Positions 7,048 to 57,187 of a stretch of 64,000 nt of DNA are shown here, piece after piece (within the stretch, counting starts at the first letter, position 1; each line of letters begins with the position of its first letter). The notes beneath the pieces were generated by a model, which saw only the letters and a program-made list of their open reading frames with translations, did not search any database and was not told the DNA's origin. The stretch spans positions 32,950 through 96,949 of the forward strand of contig CAZLTL010000001.1 of assembly GCA_964562525.1 (NCBI GenBank), in the 5' to 3' direction. This stretch comes from an uncultured bacterium. Its GTDB lineage: Bacteria; Omnitrophota; Omnitrophia; Omnitrophales; Aquincolibacteriaceae. The position numbers were made by a program, and so were the translations under genes.

Positions 7048-7508
7048 GCTGTTCCCTTCTCAAAAAAATCAGCGATCACTGTTTTCCGGTAATTGAAAAT
7101 TTTCTCCACTTCATTTTTTACGAACAACGCTCTCACAATATCTCCTAAGGGTCCCAGCGGAACTTCATATTTCACTTCATCTACCATGAGCGTTCCACCG
7201 TCTTTCGGGATAAAGCGATGCGTGTGAATCCATGTCTTGTAAGGGCCTTTTACCTGAGTATCCGTAAAAAAATGCGGCGGGTCATAATCGGTGATGACAG
7301 TTTGCCATTTCATGGGAATACCATAGAGGCGAATCGTGTAATCAATGACGGTCCCTTTCGCCATGGGAATCGGACTTGGAGTTAAGATTTTAAAACCTAA
7401 ATTAGGGGGCGTGACATGATCCAGGTTTTCAGGCTTTTTAAAAAAATCAAAAACACGATCAACAGAATAAGGTAAAAACTGCTCGCACGCTAACACGTGA
7501 AGGCTCAT
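7044..7508 (-). CDS. SRPBCC (polyketide cyclase/START-like) domain protein.
   Basis: 154 aa with the composition and length typical of Polyketide_cyc2. Translationally coupled to the YfcH-like gene; the two are fused in some genomes. Confidence 0.6.
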   Translation of the reverse strand: MSLHVLACEQFLPYSVDRVFDFFKKPENLDHVTPPNLGFKILTPSPIPMAKGTVIDYTIRLYGIPMKWQTVITDYDPPHFFTDTQVKGPYKTWIHTHRFIPKDGGTLMVDEVKYEVPLGPLGDIVRALFVKNEVEKIFNYRKTVIADFFEKGTA

Positions 7509-8245
7509 GATGCAGTCTTGAGCTTTTCGGCAAGCGTTTGCTGAAGTTGAGCCTGAAAAACTTGCGCTTTTTGCTTAAGCTGCTCAAGGATCACCCCCAC
7601 TTGCGTCTGAACACTTTCAACTACCTGTTCTTTGGAAGGAATGAAAGACTGCCAGCCGGCACTGCGTAAAGCCAAAAGCACAGCATAAACCGCGACATGA
7701 TCCGGAGTTGTGAGCTCCGTTAAATCTGTCTGAGGCGCCTCCACTTTTCGATTTTCGGTCACACGGTCATTACCAAGCTGAGTTTCAAAAACAACACGGT
7801 CCATTTGAAAGCGCACTTTTTCAATTACAAAAGAAACTGAGGGGGCTTTAATGACACCCTCGGAACCGGTCCCCATAACCCGTTTCAAAGGCCTAAGCTC
7901 AAGCACATTTGTTTCCGAAATTGATTTTTTACTCAGATACACTTCATCCACAAAAACTTCGAGACGCTTAATTTTAAAAATCCCTTTGGTTAGGCCGCTC
8001 GCGTCATACTCCGCCGTCACCTTAGAAATTTGAGCAAGCTTATGATCGCCATACCCTTCAAAATTCGAAAGGCGAACATTATGAATCGTCATTTTCTGAG
8101 ACGCGAATCCCCAACGCACCGACCCCACGGATGTCTTCACGCCCAGCCAACGCTCAAACGTGCTCGCGATTAAATAATTACTTCCGAAATAAATTCCCGC
8201 AAAAACCACTACCGCGGCAACAATTAAGCTTCGAATAAATTTCAT
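7505..8245 (-). CDS. Hypothetical membrane-anchored protein (N-terminal TM helix).
   Basis: ORF overlaps its neighbours by 4 nt, indicating operon membership. Hydrophobic N-terminus IVAAVVVFAGIYFG. Confidence 0.55.
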   Translation of the reverse strand: MKFIRSLIVAAVVVFAGIYFGSNYLIASTFERWLGVKTSVGSVRWGFASQKMTIHNVRLSNFEGYGDHKLAQISKVTAEYDASGLTKGIFKIKRLEVFVDEVYLSKKSISETNVLELRPLKRVMGTGSEGVIKAPSVSFVIEKVRFQMDRVVFETQLGNDRVTENRKVEAPQTDLTELTTPDHVAVYAVLLALRSAGWQSFIPSKEQVVESVQTQVGVILEQLKQKAQVFQAQLQQTLAEKLKTAS

Positions 8246-16076: not shown

Positions 16077-16246
16077 AACTCACCCGACCTAATTCCCATT
16101 ATAAAAATGTCCGGGAAAAGTATCGGCATCTTTCTCTGAGTTCTGAAGACAGGTAAATAAACACCTCCGCAGCAAATAAGAATAAAAAAGCCTAACCTTT
16201 TTAAAAAGCTTTGAATGTAACGCACAAGCAAGTATTTAAGATTTCT

Positions 16247-16351
16247 CAAAAAGGTTCAGTCGCAAGGCGCAAACGAACGCCCGCGGAGCCGTAGTGAAAC
16301 CCCTACGGCGCACAAGGAAGTGATGTTTGCAAGGCAGCGAATAACCTTTTT
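16247..16351. repeat. Copy A of a ~100-nt conserved structured intergenic element (second copy at 54216-54335).
   Basis: Both copies share a terminal inverted repeat (AAAAAGGTT...AACCTTTTT) and a core (CAAGGCG..GCGGAG..GTAG...TACG.CGCACAAGGAAG.GA..TT.GCAA...AGC). The internal hairpin reads CCGTAG/CTACGG in A and GCGCAG/CTACGC in B, a compensatory change at the closing pair. Confidence 0.6.
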
Positions 16352-16361
16352 CAGGAATCTT

Positions 16362-17216
16362 TTAGCAGGATTTGCGGATGATGAGTTCGGGGGAAACCAC
16401 ACGAGTTACAGGCTCAAGCGATTTTTTTTCAATTTGTTCCATTAAAATCTTAACTGCTTCGCGTCCCATCAGCTCAAGCGGTTGACCGATGGTTGTCAGC
16501 GAGGGTTCAGTGTATTTCCCCTTCCGAATTCCGTCATAACCAATCACCGCGACTTGATCCGGAACCCGAATCCAGTTTTCTTTCAACGCGCGAATCGCGC
16601 CGATGGCAATATCGTCATTCACGCAAATAATCGCACGCGGCAGTTTTTCACATTGATGGATCATATCCAGCATTTTTAAATAGCCGTCTTCTTCAAAAAA
16701 ATAATCGCATTTGCGGTAATGCTCGGGATCAAAAGTCAGCTGATATTGCCCTAAAAGTTCGCGCAACAAATCGTAGCGCTGGCGCGCGTCAAGTGAAGCA
16801 TCATCGGGAGCATGCAACATGCCGATTTTTCTGTATCCGCGGCTGAGCAAATGCCGCATCGCGAGATGAACGCCTTCTTTATTGTCGCAATAAACAATGC
16901 TTGAACGTAGTCCCGGAGTCGGATCATTGATCACAATGACGGGAATCTTTTTTTCATCCAAGGCTTCCGCGATATAACGGTCATGAATGCGCCAGGTAAT
17001 TAAAATTAATGCGTCAATTTGATGCCGGTCTAAAATTTTAAAATCCGGATCGCGATACTCTTCTTCTTTAACCAAAATCAGGCGAAAATCATGCGGTGTC
17101 CCGACAAGCGCGTTGGTCGCTCCGATCAAAAGCTGCGTGAAATAGTCCCCTTTGAAAAGCTCCGGGGTAAAAGCCCCTATCAAGCCGATCGTTAACCGTT
17201 TCTTTGTCTCACTCAT
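16362..17216 (-). CDS. LacI-type periplasmic-binding-fold (Peripla_BP) domain protein lacking the N-terminal HTH.
   Basis: 284 aa that aligns to the ligand-binding core of LacI/GalR regulators (IGLIG...; VIGYDG...TTI). The sequence starts directly in the sugar-binding domain with no HTH and no signal peptide. Confidence 0.6.
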   Translation of the reverse strand: MSETKKRLTIGLIGAFTPELFKGDYFTQLLIGATNALVGTPHDFRLILVKEEEYRDPDFKILDRHQIDALILITWRIHDRYIAEALDEKKIPVIVINDPTPGLRSSIVYCDNKEGVHLAMRHLLSRGYRKIGMLHAPDDASLDARQRYDLLRELLGQYQLTFDPEHYRKCDYFFEEDGYLKMLDMIHQCEKLPRAIICVNDDIAIGAIRALKENWIRVPDQVAVIGYDGIRKGKYTEPSLTTIGQPLELMGREAVKILMEQIEKKSLEPVTRVVSPELIIRKSC

Positions 17217-18003: not shown

Positions 18004-19118
18004 GGCAAAACGACTTGGCGGCTCGGTAATGCTGCCGTTTTTTTTGCCGCCGCCGCCTTAACGGCCTTCTTCTTGCGGATAACTCGAGGATCTTTAAAAA
18101 TCATTTTTTCAACTTGATCTTCGGTCATTTTTTTCTCGGCATAATCAATCCCCAGCGCATTATGGTGGCGGTCTTTCTCGCTTTCCTGCGCGGTATTACC
18201 CGTATCGCCAATTTCGTGCGCGTCGGTCGTTCGACGCGCAAACTCAGCGCCATAGGCTTTTGTAAGCCAATAACTCCAAAAAATATGCCGGATGACGTCA
18301 TACAAAATTTCAGGGTCACGCTTTTGAAGCTTCACGGCGCGCATCTCCGCCTCGCGGCGAAAATGAAGCAGCTTCGGCATTCTTATTAAATTTTGAGAAG
18401 CCAACATCAGATCTGATTCCGTAAATTTAGGCTCAATCATTTCAGCGATAATTCTTAAGTCTTCCGGGTTACCTTCTAAATGAACTTCTCCTTTTTCATT
18501 TTGAACCGAGTGGAACCGGACAGAAATAGGCCAATCGTCGACTAAAAAAACAGCCTTTCCGCTCATGGACAAATTTTTAATCGGCTTATCCTGAAAGATC
18601 CAGTCTTTATAAACACGCGCGCGTTTCAAAACTTGCGCCTTCCAAGAACGAGGATTGCCGTTCAAAAGCAGCCGGGTTTGAAAATCCATTTTAGAGACGG
18701 ATTCAACGCGCTCTTGATCATCACGATCTTCATGCAAAAGCCGCCCACCGCGCGCATTCAATCCGGAAATTTGAACTTGCACCTCGATCCCCTTAAGACT
18801 GATTTGCTTCAAACCTAAGTGAACTTGACTGACAGTTAATTCAAATTCACGCGGATCGAGATAAGGATGTTCAAAGCGGCTAACACCGCGGGCGCGGATA
18901 TTCTTCAGCGCTATGCCCGTTCTTGATAATTTAAACTTTCCATAATCAAAGAAGTTAATTTCAAAACTAGTCCCTTCTGTTTTCTTGACCCACGCTTGCA
19001 ATTGATGATCAAGCCGCGGCTTCAAAATAAGCGCCGCCGTAACAAGCGTCACCACAAAGAGGATGGCTGCGATAATTAAAAGCTGAAAAAATTTGATCAT
19101 ATTGAAGATAGCAATCAA
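18000..19118 (-). CDS. Membrane-anchored protein of unknown function; tandem paralog of the gene at 19122-20276.
   Basis: N-terminal TM helix. The C-terminus has a shared invariant block FWSYWLT..YG.EFARRTTDAHEIGDTGNTAQESEKDRHHNALGIDYA. Confidence 0.65.
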   Translation of the reverse strand: MIAIFNMIKFFQLLIIAAILFVVTLVTAALILKPRLDHQLQAWVKKTEGTSFEINFFDYGKFKLSRTGIALKNIRARGVSRFEHPYLDPREFELTVSQVHLGLKQISLKGIEVQVQISGLNARGGRLLHEDRDDQERVESVSKMDFQTRLLLNGNPRSWKAQVLKRARVYKDWIFQDKPIKNLSMSGKAVFLVDDWPISVRFHSVQNEKGEVHLEGNPEDLRIIAEMIEPKFTESDLMLASQNLIRMPKLLHFRREAEMRAVKLQKRDPEILYDVIRHIFWSYWLTKAYGAEFARRTTDAHEIGDTGNTAQESEKDRHHNALGIDYAEKKMTEDQVEKMIFKDPRVIRKKKAVKAAAAKKTAALPSRQVVLP

Positions 19119-19121
19119 CCC

Positions 19122-20276
19122 TTAAGCAATTTGATTTTGCAAGATACGCGGGTCGGTTAAAATAATTTTCGCGACATCTTGCTCGGAAAGTTTTCGCTGG
19201 GCATATTCAATTCCAAGCGCGTTATTGCGGCGGTCTTTTTCACTTTCCCGCGCGGTATTGGACGCATCCCCGATTTCATGAGCATCCGTCACTCTGCGCG
19301 CAAAATCCGTCCCAAAGGTCTGCGTCAAATAATAACTCCAAAAAACATGTCTGAAAGTGTCATAACTAATTTCCGAACCAAACTGATAGAGCGCTTCCGC
19401 TTTCGCTTCCGCGAGGGTCCGAACATGCAGCAACCGCGGCGTTTTTAAGAAATTCTTGGAAGCAATCCGCACGTCTTCCTCGGTAAATTTAGGTTCAATG
19501 GCGTGGGCGATTTTACGCAAGTCATTTATATCGCCTTCAAGATAAGTCGCCCGATTACGCTCCTTACTCGACGCAAAGTAAACCCGGGTCGTCACGCCAT
19601 CCGTGGCAAATGTCGCGTTCCCGCTCATGTGCACATCCGTCATATGTGCTCCGTTAAAAACCCAACTCTTAAATTGACGCACCCAAACGATAGCCTGCTT
19701 CTTCCATTTCCAAGGTGCCCTGCCAATCGGAATCCAAGCTTGAAAATTCAGTTCTGAAAGGGAATCTAATCTGCGAGGGCTATCCTCCGCTCCGGGGAGA
19801 ACAGCCCCTCCCTGCACATCCAAGCCATGAATATGAAGACCCACGCCCAAGCCCTCACGGAAGTTGCTCTTGAAATAAATCTGTAAAATCGGGATATCCA
19901 TTTCAAATTGGCGGGGCTGAAAATAGGGGTAATCATATCTTATGATCCCGCGCGCGCGCACCTGCTTAAAAACAATTCCTTGGTGGGAAAAACGAAAACC
20001 CCCATATTCAAAAAAGTTAACTTCGAAGTTTCGCCCCTTGGATCGATCCACCCAGCTTTCAATCTTCTGTTTCACGAAAGGTTCAATACCGGAAAAAACA
20101 AAAAAAAGAATACTCGCAACAACAAAAACAAAGCCTAAGCCCGCTCCGATGAAATAAATCTTTTTGCTTAACTTAAAGTCCGGCTTTAATTTAGATTTTT
20201 TATAATGCTTCAGCTCAAACTCATCGTCTTTGCGGGTTTTTCTGTCGATCTCATTCTTTAACTGCGAGTACTTCAC
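19122..20276 (-). CDS. Membrane-anchored protein of unknown function; tandem paralog of the gene at 18000-19118.
   Basis: Same architecture. C-terminal block FWSYYLTQTFGTDFARRVTDAHEIGDASNTARESEKDRRNNALGIEYA. Confidence 0.65.
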   Translation of the reverse strand: MKYSQLKNEIDRKTRKDDEFELKHYKKSKLKPDFKLSKKIYFIGAGLGFVFVVASILFFVFSGIEPFVKQKIESWVDRSKGRNFEVNFFEYGGFRFSHQGIVFKQVRARGIIRYDYPYFQPRQFEMDIPILQIYFKSNFREGLGVGLHIHGLDVQGGAVLPGAEDSPRRLDSLSELNFQAWIPIGRAPWKWKKQAIVWVRQFKSWVFNGAHMTDVHMSGNATFATDGVTTRVYFASSKERNRATYLEGDINDLRKIAHAIEPKFTEEDVRIASKNFLKTPRLLHVRTLAEAKAEALYQFGSEISYDTFRHVFWSYYLTQTFGTDFARRVTDAHEIGDASNTARESEKDRRNNALGIEYAQRKLSEQDVAKIILTDPRILQNQIA

Positions 20277-31556: not shown

Positions 31557-34500
31557 ACAAGTTCGGCTTCATCGCCGTTAACCTGCATGCCATTGGCTTC
31601 CTGCAAATTACCTTGCTTCACTTCAAACAGGTTATTGGAAAGAATGATCGGAGCATTGGGGTTGATTGACTCAGAAAAACCGCCACTTTCCTCGTTCGTG
31701 TTTTCATTATCTGAATTTTCTGTATCTTGCGGCTCTGGCTGGTCATTGCTGAATTGTGTATTTGAAAAATCACTTCCCGAAAAACTATTGGTGTCTGTTC
31801 CGCCGCTCGTTACAAACGGTGCCAATGACCGCTGAATTTCATTTTCACGGTTTGCTGTTTCCGCCGGTGTCACTTCGGTATTCGAAGGCGGAGGAGGAGT
31901 AAACCAACCCGTCGTTCCTCCTAAGTTAATTGAATTGGCTGGATCAAGCGGTAAAGTGAGGCCACTGGAATTATCCGTAATTGTGCCGTCTTGAATACTC
32001 AAATAATTACCCGTAAAAGTCGCGGCGTTCGTGAGATCAAATGTTCCGGCGCCGTTCAACACAAGGCGGTCGTCCTCATCAAGCCCGTCTAATGTCAGTG
32101 AATTCGTCACAGTTTGAGTGTTTCCCGAGGCAAGCGACAAAGTCCGTGAAGCCTCATCATTCGTCGCATCAGCTTTGGTGAGATTATAAAAAGTCGTGTT
32201 TCCTGAAATCGCTTGGTCACTTCCATCCAAAGTTACTGTTCCGGTTCCCGCGGTAAATGTTCCGCCTGTGCGGCCAAAATCTCCCGCAACATTCATACTA
32301 GCGGGCGCGACAAAAGTCCCGGCCGATTGCGTGAATGAATTATTCAAATCCAAGTCCGATGCCGCGGTAAAGGTTCCCGAACCGCTGATCACTAAATTAA
32401 AATAATCATTAGCTCCAAAATCTTTCAGCGTACGGCTGCCGCTGCCCGTGTAATTCCATGTTCCGGAATCAGTATCATTGTTGGTCAGCCCTGTAATGGT
32501 TTCCGATCCGATAAGCTGAACTGTTCCATCATTCGAAAATGTTGCACCGGTCATCCACCAACTAAACCCGTTTAAATTGAATGTTCCGGCAGAGTTTGTA
32601 AAACTGCTACCAACATTCATCGCATCGAGCAGACGCAAAGTACCGGTACCGGAATGGGCAATACCACTAAAAACTTGTCCGCCGGATGTAATATTTTGCG
32701 TTCCGGCGCCATTTAAAACGATTGTTCCTGTATTCGTAACTCCACCGGCGGATCCTCCCGCGCCACCCGAATTTCCACCTTGTGCACCTGTGGTTCCGCC
32801 AGACAAAGTAATATTGCCGCTGACTTGGACTTTTTCATTTCCGGCATCTAACGTCGCAGCGCCGCCATTTCCGCCTGCACCACCAAGCCCTCCGCCATAA
32901 TCATTTCCCATATAATTCACACTATTTCCAGTTGTGCCGCCGCTCCCTCCATTGCCTGCGACAACATTTAAGTTGCCTGTAACTGATGTTATTCCGCTTC
33001 CGGCAATATAAGTAGCACTAGCTCCATTCACCCCTGCGGAACCATCTGATCCGCTGTTACAGATGTTGATATCACAAACCGCATCGGTTCCGGATGTCCC
33101 ATCGGTGCCATTTCCGGCCATAATTGTTAAACCGCCATTCAAATTCTGATTACCGCTGCGGGCAGTATAATTCCCACCGCTTACGGTCGTTAAACCGCCT
33201 ACCGTTGTTTGCAATCCATTCGCATCATAATTTCCGGCTGAGTTTGTAAACGCTCCGGTAACAGTAAGATTATTGCCGGTTAGCTGTAAAGTTCCGGCAC
33301 CGCTATGCTGCAGCGCAGCAAAACTTTTTCCACCACTATCCAACGTCTGAGTTCCCGAAGCTTTATCAAAAATAGCAGTTCCTGAGTTAGACATCGTAAT
33401 TCCGGAACCCAAACTAACGTTGCCTCCATAATTTTGAACTCGTGAATTTACATTAAACGCCCCGCTTGTTACGCTAAAATCACCGTCCAGATCCAAATTA
33501 TCAACAAGCCGCAATGTTCCCGAACCGGAGTATTTGAGACTGCCAAGATTTTCACTATTTGAAGTAATATTTTGCGTTCCCGAACCATTCATCAATAAAG
33601 TACCGGTATAAGTATTAACCCCCTGAGCTCCCCCTGCCCCACCTGCGCCACCAGCGTTATTGTCGAAGCTACTTCCGTCGCTGCCCTGACTGCCATTCGT
33701 TGACGCCACCAAAGTAATGTTCCCTGTCACCCTTACTTTTTCATCTCCTGCATTCAACGTCGCATTTCCTCCCGTGCCGCCCGCACCCCCAGCACCTCCG
33801 CTACCCCCATTAGAATTTCCGCCGGTTCCACCATTTCCACCGGATCCCGATTGAATAATCAAATTTGTCGTTGTCGTAATACCCGAACCGGCTGTATATG
33901 TTGCGCTTACACCGGATGTTCCATCAGAACCTGCCGCGCCACCATCTTGCGCATGCTGGCCATCCGTCCCGCTGTTTCCGCTACTTGCAAGAATACTTAA
34001 CCCGCCATTCAAATTTTGGTTCCCAGTACCAGCTGTATAAGTTCCTCCGCTAACAGTCGTTAACCCACTCACTGTTGTCTGCAAACCATTTGCATTATAT
34101 GTTCCGGATGAATTAGTAAATGCACCTGTCACAGTAAGGTTATTTCCGGTCAATTGTAAAGTTCCCGCGCCAGCATGCTGAACCTCAGCAAAAATTTTTC
34201 CGCCGCTATTTAATGTCTGAGTTCCGGAAGCCTTATCAAAAATAGCATTGCCCGCGTTGGAAAGCGTAATTCCCGAACCCAAACTTACATTGCCGCCATA
34301 GTTTTGTGTCTGCGAGTTCGCATTAAATGTTCCGCTTGTCACACTCAAGTTACCATTCATATCCAAATCGTCCGTAAGCCGTAAAGTTCCTGCGCCCGAA
34401 TACGTTAAATTCGCACTAACGCTCGCTGAATTACCTGTAGTTAAATTTTGGATTCCTGATCCGTTTAAAGTGATCTCTCCCGTCGTCACTGCGGAACCAC

Positions 34501-44315: not shown

Positions 44316-47300
44316 ATGTCTGAAGTTAACTTAGAAAAAGCACTTGGGTTGGTCAACGGTCATAACTCAAGCAAATCTCAAGACAAAAAAACATACCAGC
44401 TCATTAACCAAAAGTTGGCGGCTTTGGGCTGCCCGGTTTTCCGTGATGAGCTCGGCACAGTAAAACTCCGCGAGAAAAGCACTCATGGTTCAGCTCCCGC
44501 CGATCTTTGTCCGGCGGATAAGCGCGTCCAAAATTTTTTACATGACTATCTTAAAGATGTTTGCGGAAGCCAAACTCCGAAACTGCCGCACCGAACACTC
44601 ATCTTAGACCGGCACGGCATCGCGCGCGCACTTTCATTGCCGCCCGATCAGGATTCTTTTACCTCAGATGTCATTCGCTCTTACCGCATTCAACAGGGTG
44701 TCTTGCACAATCCGGCCAATGACCGCCGCACAACACAAGGTGTCTTTCACGTCACGGAAGGCGGGTTGCCGATTCCGGATGATAAAAAAGCGGTTCCTAA
44801 AAAAGTTTTTGCGGCATTACTGAATGCAGCGCTCTGCGCGCCTAAAAACCTACTCCAGCTCCCATTTACTTCTTCGCAAAAAGATCAGGCCGAAGCATTC
44901 GTGTCCTTGCTGCTGCGTCCGATTATCTGCCCGGAAGTGCCGGGATATATTCCTGAAAAGTCGATGGAAATTCGCTTTGTCGCGCCTGGCAATCTGGTCA
45001 GCAATCTCGACTTTGTCGAATCGATCTTCGGCAATGCAGGCGATCCTTATCTTCCCGAAAATAATTCCGCGCTGGATGTCGAACACTGGAGCGGGCATAC
45101 AGGCTATGTTCTTTTAGCGCCGCATCTCACAAAATTAACCAAAAAAGAGCTCGGACTTCCTCACTTTGACAATGCGACTGAACGTCAAAAACACGACGGC
45201 ATGTGCTGGAAAAAACCGGAAGAGCTTTACAATGACGGTTCCGCTTTCAAAGTGACCTGCCGTGATGAGCGCGGAGTCATCGTAACCATCATTGCGGACA
45301 ATTATTACGGTTATTGCAAAAAGGAAGTTAAAACTCAAATCAGTTATGCGGCTAATTTATTCGGCATCGCTGAAGAAGAGCATGCTGGCGGAGCGCTTGC
45401 TTTCGCAGGTTATGACTTGGGAGATCAATTCGACCTGAGCCCTGCCTTGGTTCGAAACCCAACCACGTTTGATGAAATGAGCCGCATTTTCGCATCCATT
45501 ATGGATTTGCAGCCTGAGGGTTACGGAATTGATAAGAAAAACAAAGACATTCTCTATGTTCCTGAAAATGCGCGCTTCAATATGCACCTTCAAACCGTAA
45601 GCTGGGAAAGAAACGAAAAAATCCAGACGATTCATCTCAAGGCATACCATCATTACATTTTGCCTTCGGGTTATAAGATCACACTGCGCAAGCGCATTGA
45701 CGGAAAAACATGGTATCTCGTCGGAATTGCGCCTGAAGGCACTCTCTGTCATAAACCCTGCACGGTTTCAGGCGGCGGAAAATCTGAAATTTCTAAATCG
45801 ATTATGGATGCCGTCGTGCCGAGCTCTTTCTATGTCAACAATCTGACCAAAGATTTAGACATGGTCGAAGAGATTATGCGCCATGACTTTACAAAACGTT
45901 ATCGCGACACTTCAAAAAACAAACCCAAAAGCCGGCCCATCCTTAGCCCGGACCGCTCGCTCGGCTCCGTCATTAAGCTGTTTTCAGCCTCCCCCGAATA
46001 TACGGATGAATACAACGCGTGGATCAACTCACTCATCCCCTCAATCAAAGATTTGATTTACCTTATCAAATGCTATTACAGAAATGAATGGGGACAGAAT
46101 TGGCGCGAACATTTCACCGTGGATATCATGAATGGTTATTTGGGCCATGAACTTAAGCTCGATGGCCGCAAAGTGGTTTCAAGTTATTTACGCGTCGGCT
46201 ATGAACCGGATGGCACACGCCGTGTTTTCCGTGTTAGACAAGATTTTACGGCAGCTCAAAAGCTCCAAGTGGAAGATGATATCACTGCCTCAGCGCTTGT
46301 TCCGGCATCCAGCATTAAACATTTGAATCCGGAATATAAAAATCCCAGCGTCAAAGTTGTCCAAAATTGTGAATACCGTCTTTTTCAACGCCCCGATGAC
46401 GCGATTCACCGCGGTTACGATAAACAGGCTGAGCTCGATCTTTCCAGCCCTAACACTTTTCTTTCGAATTATGAGCCGCTTACCCAAAAAGCCGTGCATG
46501 AAATTATCGAAGATGCAATCGGGTTTGATAGTTATACCGATGCCGTCAAAAATATGCTGACCGACTTTATGAAAAACGAGACCTCGGAATTTGCCGCGAC
46601 ACCTTCCCATCCGCGAATTGTGGATGGCAAGCCGTCCAAAAATCCGCGCTACTTGCAAACGCGCATGGATGTTACCAATCCGAAGCTAAAGTACCTTTGT
46701 GAAATTGGAACAAGAATTTCGCGCAAAGTTCCGCCTTCGGAACCGCTGACTTTTACGGTCAATGCCATTTTGGCGGGGCGGCGCAACAATCCTCCAGAGC
46801 CCAAACACGGCATTAAACCGCTCGCGGTTTACAATCCTATTCATTATCAGGAATTGCCGGAGCTCTTCATGGATTTTGTTTCGAGTGTCACGGGTAAATC
46901 CCCATCGACAACCGGGTTTGGTTCGGAGGGAGCCCTCACAAAAGGTCCTTTCAACGCACTGTTCCCTTCGGCGGATTTAAACAATGCTTTTCTTTCTTTT
47001 ATTTTGGGAGATTACGCCGGCTTCTCATCAGCCGCGGGCTATGTCGGGCCTCAATACCGCGTTGAGCATGACATTAGCTTGCTGGTCCCGGAGATCTGGT
47101 GCCGCCTTACGGCCGCGGAGCGCGACCCTAACTATCTCATCCGTGAAGGTCATCTCGAACCGGTAAAAGATTTTGAGCACAAGGGAGTCAAAGTTCCGGC
47201 CAGCATCTTGGGCTATCGAATTACCTATAAATTCGTGAATTACTTTTTAGGTCGAATTTTCAACAACCCCAACTTTGTTTTCCCTGAAGCAATGCTTCGT

Positions 47301-47813
47301 CCGGAAACGCAAAGCATGGATACATTCATTGAAGGTATCGATAACCTCATGCAAACCCACGAGCAAGTCGCACGGCATTATTTGAATGACGGCAGCGTCG
47401 AGACACTTGTTCCGCCGCTTAAAGCACTGATTCACATTATGGCGCACGGCAACTACAATGGCATGGATCGACACAGCCCTGAATTTAGAAAAATGTTCAG
47501 CCGCGATGCTGTTGTCAAATCCGACTGGTATCAAGCCCGCCTCAAAAAGAAACAAAATTGGGATTTATGGCTTTGGCAGCGGCATGAAGAAACGCTGCTT
47601 AAATATTCCGCGGAGTGTGAAGATCCGCAGCTTGTAAAAAAACTAAAAATTGAAGCCAAACTCAAGCAGGCGCGAGCTGAAATCAAACGTATCAGTTCGG
47701 AGAGCTATCTCGCTGAATTGACAGGAACGATTGGGTCGGATGTGATGTTTCAGGTTCCGGGCGCAAAACATCCGCATTTATCTCATCAGGAAAAACTCGC
47801 TGCCGCGCGGTAA
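44316..47813 (+). CDS. Very large (1165 aa) cytoplasmic enzyme; candidate PPi-dependent phosphoenolpyruvate carboxykinase (PPi-PEPCK).
   Basis: Size matches the ~130-kDa PPi-PEPCK family. The segment YLVGIAPEGTLCHKPCTVSGGGKSEI aligns with the GTP-PEPCK P-loop region (lGItnPeG...AFPSACGKTN). Confidence 0.45.
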   Translation: MSEVNLEKALGLVNGHNSSKSQDKKTYQLINQKLAALGCPVFRDELGTVKLREKSTHGSAPADLCPADKRVQNFLHDYLKDVCGSQTPKLPHRTLILDRHGIARALSLPPDQDSFTSDVIRSYRIQQGVLHNPANDRRTTQGVFHVTEGGLPIPDDKKAVPKKVFAALLNAALCAPKNLLQLPFTSSQKDQAEAFVSLLLRPIICPEVPGYIPEKSMEIRFVAPGNLVSNLDFVESIFGNAGDPYLPENNSALDVEHWSGHTGYVLLAPHLTKLTKKELGLPHFDNATERQKHDGMCWKKPEELYNDGSAFKVTCRDERGVIVTIIADNYYGYCKKEVKTQISYAANLFGIAEEEHAGGALAFAGYDLGDQFDLSPALVRNPTTFDEMSRIFASIMDLQPEGYGIDKKNKDILYVPENARFNMHLQTVSWERNEKIQTIHLKAYHHYILPSGYKITLRKRIDGKTWYLVGIAPEGTLCHKPCTVSGGGKSEISKSIMDAVVPSSFYVNNLTKDLDMVEEIMRHDFTKRYRDTSKNKPKSRPILSPDRSLGSVIKLFSASPEYTDEYNAWINSLIPSIKDLIYLIKCYYRNEWGQNWREHFTVDIMNGYLGHELKLDGRKVVSSYLRVGYEPDGTRRVFRVRQDFTAAQKLQVEDDITASALVPASSIKHLNPEYKNPSVKVVQNCEYRLFQRPDDAIHRGYDKQAELDLSSPNTFLSNYEPLTQKAVHEIIEDAIGFDSYTDAVKNMLTDFMKNETSEFAATPSHPRIVDGKPSKNPRYLQTRMDVTNPKLKYLCEIGTRISRKVPPSEPLTFTVNAILAGRRNNPPEPKHGIKPLAVYNPIHYQELPELFMDFVSSVTGKSPSTTGFGSEGALTKGPFNALFPSADLNNAFLSFILGDYAGFSSAAGYVGPQYRVEHDISLLVPEIWCRLTAAERDPNYLIREGHLEPVKDFEHKGVKVPASILGYRITYKFVNYFLGRIFNNPNFVFPEAMLRPETQSMDTFIEGIDNLMQTHEQVARHYLNDGSVETLVPPLKALIHIMAHGNYNGMDRHSPEFRKMFSRDAVVKSDWYQARLKKKQNWDLWLWQRHEETLLKYSAECEDPQLVKKLKIEAKLKQARAEIKRISSESYLAELTGTIGSDVMFQVPGAKHPHLSHQEKLAAAR

Positions 47814-48743
47814 ATGGCAAAGCATAAACCCTATCGCATTGTTGTTTATGCTCTCGCGCGTGGCGTTGCGGCTTTTTTTTACCTATTCCCGCGCGCTTTC
47901 CTTCTCGCATTTGCGCGCTTCTTGGGTTCGTTTGTTTTTTGGGCCGTTCCAAAACACCGCCGCGAAGTCCTACGCAATCTGACGACGGCTTTTGGAAACA
48001 GAAAGACACCTCAGGAAATTCGCCGCTTATCTCAAAGCGTTTTTCAACATCTCGCTCAAACCGCTTTTGAAGTTTTACAATTTCCAAAATGGAAGCACTA
48101 TCCCCTGGAAGAAATTATTGAATTCGGCGACGCGCCGGATCGATATCGCGCGCTTTTAAGCGAAGGCAAAGGGCTGATCACCATCACATCCCATATCGGC
48201 AACTGGGAGCTTCTGGGCGGCATCCCCTCCATGAAAGGTTTTAAAAGCAAAGCCATCGCACGGCGTCTTCGCTACCCCCGTTTTCAAAACTGGGTTGAAA
48301 GCTTAAGAAACTCTATCGGCGTTGAACTGATTTACCGCGATGATTCACCCAAAAAAATTTTTCAATGTCTCAAAAGCGGCGAAGCACTCGGCCTCTTGCC
48401 CGATCAAGATATTGCAGGGCTTAAAGGCGTATTCGTTGATTTCTTCGGCAAACCAGCGCATACCAGCATCGCCCCCGTAAAACTTTCTTTAGCGACAGGC
48501 GCTCCGATCGCATGCGTGTTTTTGATACGCTTGCCGCATGACCGTTATAAGATTTTTTTCAGCGATGTCCTTCGTCCCAAGATTGAAACAACTGAAGCCG
48601 AGGCGCTGCAAAAATACACCGCGCTATGGATGAAAGATGTAGAAGAAATTATTCGGCAATATCCGGATCAGTGGGGATGGATGCATAACCGCTGGAAAAC
48701 CCAACCCAGGCTCACTGAAAATGTCTCGTCTGCTGCGTTATAA
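47814..48743 (+). CDS. LpxL/LpxM/LpxP-family lipid A biosynthesis (lauroyl/myristoyl) acyltransferase.
   Basis: The HIGNWELLG segment matches the HX4D/E-type acyltransferase motif of the family. N-terminal membrane anchor. 309 aa. Confidence 0.7.
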   Translation: MAKHKPYRIVVYALARGVAAFFYLFPRAFLLAFARFLGSFVFWAVPKHRREVLRNLTTAFGNRKTPQEIRRLSQSVFQHLAQTAFEVLQFPKWKHYPLEEIIEFGDAPDRYRALLSEGKGLITITSHIGNWELLGGIPSMKGFKSKAIARRLRYPRFQNWVESLRNSIGVELIYRDDSPKKIFQCLKSGEALGLLPDQDIAGLKGVFVDFFGKPAHTSIAPVKLSLATGAPIACVFLIRLPHDRYKIFFSDVLRPKIETTEAEALQKYTALWMKDVEEIIRQYPDQWGWMHNRWKTQPRLTENVSSAAL

Positions 48744-48847
48744 ACTCGCTTCTTTGTGCGACATACTTTTAACAGTATGTCTCCGCAGGCGCTCGTTTAT
48801 GCCTGGCATCCAAAACATTTTGATTGAGCCCAATCACAGAAAATATT

Positions 48848-53406: not shown

Positions 53407-53748
53407 ATGAAACGAATCATTTCTTGTGCTTTGATCTTCAGCATCGTTTTTGCTCCGGTTGCTTTCGCCGAATCCTTCACCTCGGTAAAACCAAGTTCCT
53501 GGGCCAAGCAAGAAAGCTATGGTGATAAAACCGTCCACAAGCTCGGTTTTGGGCTTCTCAATATCACGGTGGGTTGGGTTGCCATCCCTTTCCAAATTAG
53601 TAAGCATATGGACACCAACCCTTATACCGGATTAGCCAAAGGGCTTTGGCTCACTGCAACCAACACCGTCGGAGGAGTTTTGCATACCGCCACTTTTCCG
53701 ATTCCTTTAGATATTCCCCTTCCGGCCGGCGGCGTTCAGTTTGAGTAA
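53407..53748 (+). CDS. Small secreted protein (113 aa); tandem paralog of the next gene; possibly TIGR04073 (exosortase-system-associated) family.
   Basis: Signal peptide. Shared motifs with its neighbour: E(S/T)YG(D/E)KT, ...G..N.(T/L)(V/L)GW(V/T)AI and T(A/G)..(V/I)..(A/V)TFPIP(L/V)D. The family name comes from memory only. Confidence 0.55.
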   Translation: MKRIISCALIFSIVFAPVAFAESFTSVKPSSWAKQESYGDKTVHKLGFGLLNITVGWVAIPFQISKHMDTNPYTGLAKGLWLTATNTVGGVLHTATFPIPLDIPLPAGGVQFE

Positions 53749-54187
53749 TTTTATGAAAAAAACATTTTTTTTCTTATTTGTAGCGATTGTTCTAATCAGC
53801 CAAAACAGCTGGTCTTCCCCCTGGGCGGAAAAAGAAACTTATGGCGAAAAAACAGGCGGCAAAGCCGTGTTCGGTGTCAAAAATACGCTGTTAGGTTGGA
53901 CAGCTATTTTTACTGAAACCGTTAAATACCAGTATTACCTTGAGAAAAAAGAAGGTTGGGAAGGTTTTTGCTATGGAATTTCAAAGTCCGTTCTTTATAC
54001 GGCAACCGGCGCAATTCAATTAGTCACCTTCCCGATTCCGGTTGATTTTCCTAATATGGGCGAAGGAGTTTTACATTCATCGGTAAAAGAACAAGCTGAA
54101 CGCGAACAGGGCAAAAAAGCAACCCCGGATGAATTAGCGCAGCAAGCTGAAGAAGCTATTGCGACGGAACAAGCAACGCCCGCTTAG
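53741..54187 (+). CDS. Small secreted protein (148 aa); tandem paralog of the previous gene, with a Glu/Ala-rich C-terminal tail.
   Basis: As above. Overlaps the previous gene by 8 nt. Confidence 0.55.
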   Translation: MSNFMKKTFFFLFVAIVLISQNSWSSPWAEKETYGEKTGGKAVFGVKNTLLGWTAIFTETVKYQYYLEKKEGWEGFCYGISKSVLYTATGAIQLVTFPIPVDFPNMGEGVLHSSVKEQAEREQGKKATPDELAQQAEEAIATEQATPA

Positions 54188-54215
54188 AGACCGCTTCGAC
54201 TCCCTCTGCTAATCC

Positions 54216-54335
54216 AAAAAGGTTTAGTTGTAGTTGCGACCATAAACAAGGCGTGAATGAGCGCATGCGGAGGCGCAGTAAAAGCTACGCCGCACAAGGA
54301 AGCGAAATTCGCAACGAAGCAGATACCCCTTTTTC
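54216..54335. repeat. Copy B of the ~100-nt conserved structured intergenic element (copy A at 16247-16351), with an 18-nt insertion near its 5' end.
   Basis: See copy A. Lies between two convergent gene ends. Confidence 0.6.
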
Positions 54336-55362
54336 AATGAGGATGGTTTTTCTCAAATAGGTAATGGCAAACATACCATTCATTACCCTGGTTATACCGA
54401 AAAAGCTCTGAACAAGCTAAGAAGAATACACGCCAATAATGGAACCACTTCAGGGATTGACCTTCCCCATAGGTTTTCTCAAAAAGCTCAAGGATTGACT
54501 TTTTCCGCTGATCCGCCCGTTTGAGCCAAGCTTCGCAGGTCCGGTGGTAATGCATTCCGGACACTTTCCAAGTTTTTATCACTTTCAAGTGGCGGTCAAA
54601 ATGACGGAATAAATTTTCGGACGGCATAATTCCACCGCTAAAAAAATAAGTCGCCATCCATGACGAAGGATCAGGATCAAAAGGGTAGGAATACTCCCGA
54701 TGGCAGAAAATATGCACAAACATTTTACCGTCCGGCGCCAGCCAACTCGCGATTTTTTCAAAAAGCAATTCGTAATTCCGCAAATGTTCAAACATTTCAA
54801 CGGAAACAACGCGGTCAAACTGGGCTCCGGATTCAAAATGATTAATATCCGCGGTGATTACTTCTAAATTAGTCAATCCTTCCGCCTGAGCCGCTTGATC
54901 AATCCAAGCCTTCTGTGTTTTGGAGTTGGAAACCGCCGTGATCTTTGCCCTAGGAAATTGTCGCGCCATTTCTAAGCTAAGCGAACCCCAGCCGCAGCCT
55001 AACTCAAGCACGCGCTGCCCATCCGCGATTTCAGCCCTTTGGATCGTCAAACGCAGCATGGCTGATTCCGAATCATCCAAATCCGCTTCCGCAACAGCCC
55101 AATTGCCGCTGCTATACTTCATGTAACGGCCCAAAACTTGGCAGAAAAAATCAGACGGAACTTCATAATGCTGCTGATTCGCCGAATCCGTCATCACCGC
55201 GATGGGGCTTTGTTTGAGTTTTTCAACCCACTGCGCCTGAAACCCCTTCGCTGCCGACGTCTCCAGTTTTTGCAGACGGTCTTTCAGCTGACGGCGAATT
55301 CCCGCGCGCAGCACACAATCCGGCAATATTCCTTTTGCGATTGCTTGATCCAGCCAACTCAT
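54334..55362 (-). CDS. cfa: Cyclopropane-fatty-acyl-phospholipid synthase family SAM-dependent methyltransferase.
   Basis: SAM motif VLELGCGWGSLSLEMAR plus the characteristic CFA-synthase C-terminal region. Confidence 0.8.
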   Translation of the reverse strand: MSWLDQAIAKGILPDCVLRAGIRRQLKDRLQKLETSAAKGFQAQWVEKLKQSPIAVMTDSANQQHYEVPSDFFCQVLGRYMKYSSGNWAVAEADLDDSESAMLRLTIQRAEIADGQRVLELGCGWGSLSLEMARQFPRAKITAVSNSKTQKAWIDQAAQAEGLTNLEVITADINHFESGAQFDRVVSVEMFEHLRNYELLFEKIASWLAPDGKMFVHIFCHREYSYPFDPDPSSWMATYFFSGGIMPSENLFRHFDRHLKVIKTWKVSGMHYHRTCEAWLKRADQRKKSILELFEKTYGEGQSLKWFHYWRVFFLACSELFRYNQGNEWYVCHYLFEKNHPH

Positions 55363-57113: not shown

Positions 57114-57187
57114 CGGGACGTGGCTCAGCCTGGTAGAGCACACGCTTGGGGTGCGTGGGGTCGTGGGTTCGAATCCCGCCGTCCCGA
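57114..57187 (+). tRNA. tRNA-Pro (anticodon GGG).
   Basis: Hand-folded cloverleaf: acceptor CGGGACG/CGTCCCG (the C1-G72 pair typical of bacterial tRNA-Pro); D stem GCTC/GAGC; anticodon stem CACGC/GCGTG with loop TTGGGGT; T arm GTGGG-TTCGAAT-CCCGC; discriminator A. Confidence 0.85.

Follow-up and report, generated by a model that had tools for sequence, protein, structure and literature searches.

The stretch of DNA analysed here (the window; 64,000 nt of contig CAZLTL010000001.1 in assembly GCA_964562525.1, from an uncultured bacterium of the phylum Omnitrophota) carries, between two convergent gene ends, one copy (copy B) of a structured repeat element that is also found elsewhere in the window and in other genomes. 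The minus-strand gene at this locus is cfa, assigned to the cyclopropane-fatty-acyl-phospholipid synthase family through homologues with PF02353 and their source names, and its product is 79% identical to the counterpart in the Omnitrophota genome GFS_12873, with synteny kept, which assigns the window to a member of the Omnitrophota. Convergent to cfa runs the second of two tandem small paralogues (113 and 148 aa) with hydrophobic N-termini, for which no Pfam match is on record and which hold the same place beside cfa in all relatives examined (L077-L083; loci are given by such numbers throughout). The gap between this small-protein open reading frame (ORF) and cfa measures 146 nt and is occupied by the element, as the original prediction had stated; the small-protein stop lies 17 nt from copy B, and the cfa ORF ends inside it. 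The overlap with the cfa stop codon that had been claimed also holds, the TGA at 54336-54334 being the element's own TGA.

Copies were located with a covariance model (R1) made from 45 family members, including the window copies A and C, with copy B left out. Run over the whole window with filters off, R1 returned exactly three copies, A, B, and C (Table 1), the next best match on any other sequence reaching 15.4 bits and the reverse strand of copy A 18.2 bits. Copy B has the lowest score of the three and carries two inserted stretches in its 3' arm. That it is the same element as copy A, as proposed originally, is borne out both by these matches and by an alignment with MAFFT (78% column identity with one 16-column gap; the copy A part is 16242-16352). 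Copy C, on the other hand, had been overlooked, and the strand quoted at the time was the reverse complement of the conserved, gene-co-oriented strand. The 18-mer CTACGSCGCACAAGGAAG occurs twice in the window, in copies A and B only, compared with 0.03 expected occurrences, and the repeat is real and far beyond chance. Copy B furthermore matches the family pattern exactly (CTTCYTTGTGCG, apical hairpin, CTCCGCNNGCG at 54302-54262 on the minus strand), and the core, apical, and flank columns that it matches there are invariant in 45-53 copies.

Table 1. Coordinates of the three element copies, the parts of copy B, and the adjoining genes in the window.
Feature	Position	Strand	Remarks
Copy A	16236-16363	-	R1 118.7 bits
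LacI-like gene	16362..17216	-	copy A begins 2 nt inside/after its TAA stop
Acyltransferase gene	47814..48743	+	upstream of copy C; mtnA-like gene on the other side of copy C
Copy C	48706-48833	+	R1 108.7 bits; first picked up by a mismatch/looser motif search near 48781-48806
First small paralogue	53407..53748	+	
Second small paralogue	53741..54187	+	convergent to cfa
Copy B	54204-54346	-	R1 69.7 bits, E=5e-17, model positions 1-127
Parts of copy B, in order	54204..54346	-	outer stem, A-run, both arms, core, apical hairpin, U-run, outer stem
U5 (T5) tract, 3' side of copy B	54216..54220	-	followed by decayed outer stem GGATTAG (54209-54215)
Insertion in copy B	54231..54246	-	16 nt; plus strand TAGTTGCGACCATAAA, sense strand TTTATGGTCGCAACTA
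Core CTTCCTTGTGCG, apical hairpin GCGTAGCTTTTACTGCGC, then CTCCGCATGCG	54262..54302	-	pattern match
A5 tract, 5' arm of copy B	54330..54334	-	partner of the U5 tract; appears on the plus strand as a T5 run behind the hairpin
cfa stop TGA	54334..54336	-	TGA of the conserved cTGAaaaag 5' end of the element; catTGAaaaagg
cfa	54334..55362	-	upstream gene of copy B

Folding of the 45-copy alignment with RNAalifold gave one long irregular hairpin with 43 pairs, the element measuring approximately 127 nt. Paired cells amount to 92%, compared with 35-50% when the partners are slid by 1-3 columns; changes occur on both sides in 29 of the 43 pairs, and compensatory cells number 292 as opposed to 78+-8 in shuffles, the observed value being reached by 0 of 500 shuffles. 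The ends of the element read cTGAAAAAG and CTTTTTGAg. Its outermost part is a stem of 7-10 bp that is copy-specific yet self-complementary, with 7.6 of 11 Watson-Crick pairs as compared to 4.4+-1.4 when the 5' and 3' flanks are taken from different copies. Inside it follow a conserved G.G mismatch and the A5:U5 helix (model positions 15-20 with 118-123), then a helix in which CATCTG in both arms produces a conserved tandem U.C/C.U mismatch, and further inward a variable, strongly covarying helix. The core is nearly invariant (CUUCCUUGUGCG ... CCUCCGCGGGCG) and is predicted to form a helix with U.C mismatches and three invariant U.G pairs, beyond which lies the apical hairpin. Core columns 53/89 (alignment A3) covary between C-G and U-A (CTTCC...CGCGGG versus CTTCT...CGCAGG; U-A in 7/45, U.G in 2/45), which supports pairing of the two core strands.

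One explanation considered for the copy-specific outer stems is fold-back copying of the upstream flank. The cleanest pair of a filled and an empty site (L071 versus L039) speaks against it, as the empty site shows neither arm, and so does a weak family consensus of the stem (AACCGCTG/GAGCGGTT). The outer stems are probably better read as a fast-evolving part of the element.

When 185,579 species genomes were searched for the core pattern (CTTCYTTGTGCG-N16-24-CTCCGCNNGCG), 76 loci came out, of which about 55 are true members. Many copies each are present in four Candidatus Omnitrophota genomes (UBA2337, GFS_12873, GFS_2494, and SRP135725_co2_92), and members also occur, among others, in Auribacterota and in one Planctomycetia genome. 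A variant with the same core and different arms was found in Geobacter/Geobacteraceae as well as in one Nitrospirae and one Bdellovibrionales genome, and pattern matches in high-GC genomes (e. g., Streptomyces and Polyangium) look like chance. Within 465 kb (pattern-selected loci plus the window), R1 finds 76 copies, about 16 of which were missed by the exact pattern. The density in Omnitrophota is approximately one copy per 20-25 kb, consistent with the three copies per 64 kb in the window, and by extrapolation from this density about 100 or more genes per genome would bear, and be affected by, an element.

At the gathering threshold of Rfam 15, the window and 16 loci gave tRNAs only, and none of its families corresponds to the element; when four regions of the element were scanned by E-value, only sub-threshold chance matches came up. 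A match of the opposite strand of a Geobacter copy to PrrB/RsmZ (18.7 versus 44 bits) was rejected because its GGA motifs would be paired. As a separate observation, the deltaproteobacterial genome SKS4.bin43 (L072) holds a Geobacter-type and an Omnitrophota-like copy 4 kb apart (3441-3566, 7458-7583), the Omnitrophota-like one having its A-run 5' and its U-run 3'.

The position of the element relative to genes was scored over the copies in pattern-selected loci and the window, 71 of which were scorable. In 59 of these, CTTCCTTGTGCG lies on the same strand that codes for the upstream gene, and 54 of the 59 have a stop codon that ends at an offset of -15 to +3 nt relative to model position 1 (mode -2/-3). 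Since all three stop codons are used (TAA 27, TGA 17, and TAG 7), a DNA target triplet does not explain this anchoring. About seven copies, among them copy B and its orthologue at L083, supply the stop codon with their own TGA and have a coding 5' outer arm; in copy B, the end of the cfa stop lies 13 nt inside the model start, which is one of the recurrent positions. The strands of the three window copies track the local gene strand even though the latter flips within 6 kb, which argues against a purely replication-linked orientation. Downstream spacers range from 3 to 340 nt, and copies with more than 100 nt downstream are still flush with the upstream stop. Among co-directional downstream genes, 31 of 48 start at most 60 nt from the element, and a purine-rich ribosome-binding spacer and start mostly lie 13-40 nt past the hairpin. 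A promoter reading out of the element was also looked for and rejected: a -35-like 3' TTGAnn gave one consensus match (copy C), with no consistent -10 or spacing in others.

Such placement may suggest that the element is read by the terminating ribosome itself, the stop-flush hairpin with its anti-Shine-Dalgarno-like loops (CUUCCUU, CCUCC) tuning termination of the upstream gene and acting as a translational brake or coupling device, and as an aid to re-initiation, rather than protecting the 3' end. A stop codon no more than about 3 nt away from the stem in the majority of copies, even where a long spacer follows, would fit this idea, as would stems that include the stop or the last codons, and the short distance from the 3' base of the hairpin to the downstream spacer and start would bring stop and start together. 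The core, nearly invariant from Omnitrophota to Geobacter, likewise suggests a universal partner, and a precedent is found in REP (repetitive extragenic palindromic) sequences, the hairpins of which lower translation in E. coli when fewer than 16 nt separate them from the stop (Liang et al. 2015, as cited in PMC12306157). About one third of the copies, copy B included, have, however, a convergent or no nearby downstream gene, and, in the predicted rod, the pyrimidine motifs are largely base-paired. Stems of this kind are, moreover, normally unwound by the helicase activity of the ribosome. In sum, we consider direct reading by the ribosome to be unlikely.

A simpler proposal, already put forward in the original prediction, is that copy B is a plain (bidirectional) intrinsic terminator, in which case the family would represent terminators sharing ancestry. 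Indeed, the elements follow stop codons, A4-6 before and T4-6 after the hairpin are present in about 85% of Omnitrophota copies, and hairpins can be strong (copy A: -43.2 kcal/mol, z=-3.5 versus shuffles). Copy B itself offers a hairpin with U5 on both strands between convergent ends; its U-tract is, however, paired, its fold reaches a z of just -1.1/-1.7, and a consensus terminator scan calls none of the three window copies. The U-run is itself part of a helix that continues for another 8-10 bp, and the invariant internal loops and the 43-pair rod go far beyond what termination needs. Several Omnitrophota copies lack the U-run altogether (L063, L070, L009, and L022), and the polarity of the homopolymer helix is flipped in Geobacter-type copies, which keep the helix with CTTTT 5' and AAAAA 3' on the gene strand (L025 1952-2077; L011 624-749), so that a U-tract after the hairpin is not family-wide. 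Downstream genes starting as close as described above leave no room for a promoter, one Geobacter copy lies between dapAB and dapL, which are co-transcribed across it (PMC2700814), and a mere three copies serve 64 kb with about 55 genes. For the family, a terminator is thus a distinctly unlikely explanation. What stands of the proposal is that bidirectional termination is structurally possible at copy B through U5 on both strands; as the conserved property of the family it fails on spacing, Geobacter polarity, dapAB-dapL co-transcription, and the loops.

Comparison of orthologous copies with the adjacent genes indicates that the element is maintained. Element identity is 95% with 53% at 4-fold sites for L063/L070, 90% with 51% for L007/L041, 83% with 50% for L026/L063, and 97% with 67% for L011/L072 (Geobacter type), the range over orthologues being 0.83-0.97 for the element versus 0.45-0.67 for 4-fold sites of the adjacent gene. 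In 11 comparisons, 29 double pair-preserving changes were counted, on an alignment that was fitted to the model and hence leans toward structure. The copies are under purifying selection, with conservation far above that of silent sites. No pair of copies within one genome is more than 85% identical, and mean identity within genomes (0.65-0.67) equals that between genomes (0.66), which implies an old expansion of the family, with the copies kept at their sites from then on. Active MITEs (miniature inverted-repeat transposable elements) or REPINs behave differently.

The original prediction had also offered a mobile, REP-like origin, and the family could conceivably be selfish non-autonomous mobile DNA (MITE-, REP-, or REPIN-like), whose hairpin would be needed for a trans-acting transposase to mobilise it as single-stranded DNA, without host function and with post-stop sites being tolerated insertions. 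Many dispersed copies across at least five phyla agree with this, as do the turnover visible in filled and empty orthologous sites (L071 versus L039, L049 versus L068, and L083 versus L081), decay by insertion or internal deletion (window copy B, L082, and L079), and the lack of an excess of G.U over A.C pairs, which fits a hairpin at the DNA level. ORF ends are sometimes supplied by the element, for example, by copy B and L083 for cfa and by copy C for the acyltransferase gene, the ORF of which runs 36 nt into copy C so that its last 12 codons (LTENVSSAAL) are element-encoded. The corresponding site in GFS_12873 (L079 6735-6800) retains only an internally deleted remnant, with GTTTATGCCTGGCAT in common, which now encodes the acyltransferase C-terminus. 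A recent burst of transposition is, however, contradicted by the identity values given above, and orthologues are conserved beyond silent sites, with copy-specific stems kept by compensatory change. Neither a constant terminal inverted repeat nor a consistent target-site duplication was seen, and a DNA target leaves the anchoring to any stop codon, even beside long spacers, unexplained. Searches of plasmid, phage, and E. coli collections (5,426 E. coli genomes) gave no true match, and the single pattern match in viral contigs is not a family member. Selfish DNA as the whole explanation is therefore quite doubtful; the mobile origin proposed earlier comes closer in kind, and is set back by the purifying selection and the missing signs of recent mobility.

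The history of copy B itself can be followed in close relatives (L081-L083), which were taken from the 90%-identity cluster of the window cfa protein. The orthologous copy at L083 (GCA_020049755.1) is canonical, with 132 bits, no insertion, and a perfect outer stem (GCTCATT/AATGAGC), cfa ending at the element's TGA (GCT CAT TGA). Window copy B is identical to it at 111 of 127 positions, the 4-fold sites of cfa being 71% identical, and differs by the insertion, a core change from CGCGGG to CGCATG, and a damaged outer stem. An insertion in copy B had been noted before, with a length of 18 nt; the alignments with copy A and L083 both set it at 16 nt. The comparison of strains, suggested earlier as a test, has a clear outcome: the insertion is missing in L083, an insertion-like sequence (cattGGTCGCAAatca) is present in L082 (2695-2788; 23 bits), where about 50 nt were lost between CCTTGT direct repeats, and the element as a whole is absent from L081 (2817-2840), the closest relative of L083 (4-fold identity 0.80), where only a 24-nt gap is left. 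In L077 (2990-3114), an unrelated 125-nt filler with the palindrome CCTGCCTGCCGGCAGGCAGG takes the place of the element, and in L078 and L079 the genes at the cfa locus abut without an element.

TCGCAAC within the insertion is reverse-complementary to GTTGCGA in the 5' arm of copy B, and the insertion adjoins a tandem duplication of CAACTA. In the minimum-free-energy fold, GUUGCGA pairs with UCGCAAC, the insertion thereby capturing the 5' strand of the variable helix, and its origin looks like a hairpin-templated (template-switch) event. The fold of copy B is no better than that of shuffled sequences (z -1.1 to -1.7, compared with the value of copy A given above). Copy B is an ordinary, degenerating family member, as seen from its insertion, broken pairs, and loss in close relatives; together, the weak fold and these losses indicate that it is decaying and that the element is dispensable at the cfa locus.

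Summed up, the family is an ancient, dispersed, many-copy set of hairpins that is strand-linked to the upstream gene, anchored to the stop codon, under selection, and not recently mobile. As its role we tentatively favour, at somewhat less than even confidence, that the element is a co-transcribed hairpin which forms a structured mRNA 3' end or intercistronic boundary, acts as a nuclease barrier, possibly as a ribosome brake, and in Omnitrophota as a terminator or attenuator, and offers loops for protein docking. The element would be transcribed as the tail of the upstream mRNA, and a hairpin flush with the stop would constitute its structured 3' end or the boundary between cistrons. No single-stranded linker would be left for endonucleases, 3'-to-5' exonucleases would be blocked after termination or processing, and ribosomes reaching the stop may be slowed, while a protein of wide conservation would dock at the conserved loops. 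Copies with a U-run behind the hairpin, such as those in Omnitrophota, could also terminate or attenuate transcription, and at the cfa locus, with convergent genes and U5 on both strands, the element may act as a two-way terminator. Read-through is supported by the crossing of the Geobacter copy in dapAB-dapL co-transcription (PMC2700814) and by downstream genes keeping their own ribosome-binding spacers.

Several observations weigh against a co-transcribed mRNA end. The RNA-level role is deduced from position and orientation alone, and 12 of the 71 copies have the opposite orientation. As the U-run is absent or reversed in Geobacter-type and some Omnitrophota copies, termination cannot be the shared mechanism. 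Among variable cells, G.U is not enriched over A.C (32 versus 66), an unusual pattern for sense-strand RNA that would agree with a hairpin at the DNA level or with templated correction from arm to arm; the pair counts, moreover, used alignments partly fitted to the model (A4). Finally, the copy at the cfa locus is a dispensable one, having been lost, replaced, or deleted in L081, L082, L077, L078, and L079.

A further proposal would be a class of cis-acting structured RNA, so far unrecognised, that works with the translation-termination machinery, namely a stop-anchored rod, conserved from Omnitrophota to Desulfobacterota (Geobacter), Nitrospirae, and Bdellovibrionales, whose pyrimidine-rich, anti-Shine-Dalgarno-like core loops would steer stalling, recycling, re-initiation, or nuclease hand-over. 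We rate this as rather improbable. Distinctive of the family are the near-identical core across phyla, the in-place selection while silent sites saturate, and the placement at the stop to nearly a single nucleotide, and these point to a conserved trans-acting partner and to a role at the termination/3'-end junction. The roles of REP, ERIC, and Correia sequences are debated, and they are usually seen as lineage-specific selfish DNA; the present family makes the question testable. The Geobacter members of the family reside in species that can be cultivated, are genetically tractable, and come with transcriptome data, so that a function could be assigned quickly and transferred to the uncultivated Omnitrophota. 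Annotation, too, would gain from a covariance model of the family, as Rfam has no entry for it.

Other features of the window may be mentioned for completeness. The ORF upstream of the acyltransferase gene (44316-47813, plus strand; 1165 aa) appears, from its sequence, to resemble pyrophosphate (PPi)-dependent phosphoenolpyruvate carboxykinase. A tRNA gene (57114-57187, plus strand; 63 bits) is the sole Rfam match in the window at the gathering threshold. Between 11123 and 12582, repeat units of 38-65 nt (families D3, D4, D5, and D8) recur every 246-276 nt or multiples thereof and probably mark the gene for a protein with tandem domains of about 88 aa. Two pairs of direct repeats (33096-33395 / 33966-34265, 300 nt, 75% identical, 870 nt apart; 18085-18311 / 19147-19373, 227 nt, 71% identical, 1062 nt apart) are both likely to be tandem paralogous genes.

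Among known systems, Rho-independent terminators resemble most Omnitrophota copies, including copy B, in having an A-tract 5' and a U-tract 3' of the hairpin. They differ in that the hairpin is here about five times the usual length, the U-tract is paired, the helix extends beyond it, and motifs are conserved; in addition, the elements often stand between closely spaced co-directional genes, and the polarity is reversed in Geobacter. Membership in several classes of mobile DNA was tried and rejected. For MITEs, outer stems that differ between copies, filled and empty sites without a consistent duplication, and a maximum within-genome identity of 0.85 are out of keeping. An apparent TAA/TTAA target-site duplication dissolves, as the TTAA that often stands behind the outer stem complements the stop codon in the helix, and TGA and TAG are also used. 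As for integron attC sites, the end motifs of the element lack R''/R' boxes (RYYYAAC, GTTRRRY), and its neighbours (cfa, mtnA-like, and clpB) have housekeeping functions, whereas attC sites belong to arrays of promoterless cassettes.

REP/BIME sequences of E. coli are similar in kind, being dispersed palindromes in transcribed intergenic regions and 3' untranslated regions, where REPs stabilise the upstream mRNA. They carry a GTAG or CGTC tag and associate with RAYT transposases, according to PMC3733652. In the family described here, GTAG is found only within the apical stem of some copies (GCGTAG versus GCGTAT) and is not terminal. REPs are, moreover, simple stem-loops of 20-40 nt that are often clustered in alternating orientation, as opposed to a single rod with conserved internal loops, and a stop is no more than 15 nt away for about 11% of the putative REPs of E. 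coli, compared with about 90% for this family.

ERIC/IRU elements in enterobacteria and Correia elements in Neisseria are imperfect palindromes as well, about 100-150 bp long and situated in intergenic regions that are transcribed. These are co-transcribed with flanking genes, influence mRNA processing and stability depending on their orientation, and give rise to length variants through internal indels; their terminal inverted repeats are constant, TA target duplications accompany them, and near-identical copies are numerous. The present family differs from them in that its outer stems are specific to each copy, recent copies are missing, and anchoring to the stop codon is strict, and no sequence similarity to ERIC was detected (E. 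coli ERIC copies, 5,426 E. coli genomes). REP, ERIC, and Correia are thus the closest known kinds in behaviour, with membership failing on size, end motifs, sequence, or copy similarity.

Closest in sequence is the Geobacter form, which corresponds to the 'predicted short RNA elements' Gmet_R1001-R1024 / GSU0160.1, described without an assigned function (Aklujkar et al. 2009, BMC Microbiol 9:109, PMC2700814, Additional file 4). In G. metallireducens, 24 such elements of about 112-127 nt were reported as intergenic and multi-copy, and were placed 5' of genes (PMC2700814). Stop-codon anchoring, covariation of the secondary structure, cross-phylum spread, and selection on orthologous copies do not feature in that paper. 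Literature searched by the core sequence itself yielded nothing relevant. Shared with the window family are the core TTGTGCG, a GC-rich apical palindrome, and CCTCCGCG, along with the arm motifs CCATCT (5') and GCCTTGA.CTTG (3'); R1, built on Omnitrophota, matches Geobacter-type loci at 36-64 bits, and the alignment printed in 2009 fits L011, L025, and L032. The apical palindrome is fixed as GRCGTAGCGCTGCTACGCC in Geobacter, whereas in Omnitrophota its stem covaries and its loop varies, copy B having GGCGTAGCTTTTACTGCGCC and copy A GCCGTAGGGGTTTCACTACGGC at the same position and with the same flanks. This difference makes the window copies members of a sister subfamily rather than of the Geobacter subfamily itself, and on these sequence comparisons the Geobacter and Omnitrophota forms are best described as two subfamilies of one family.

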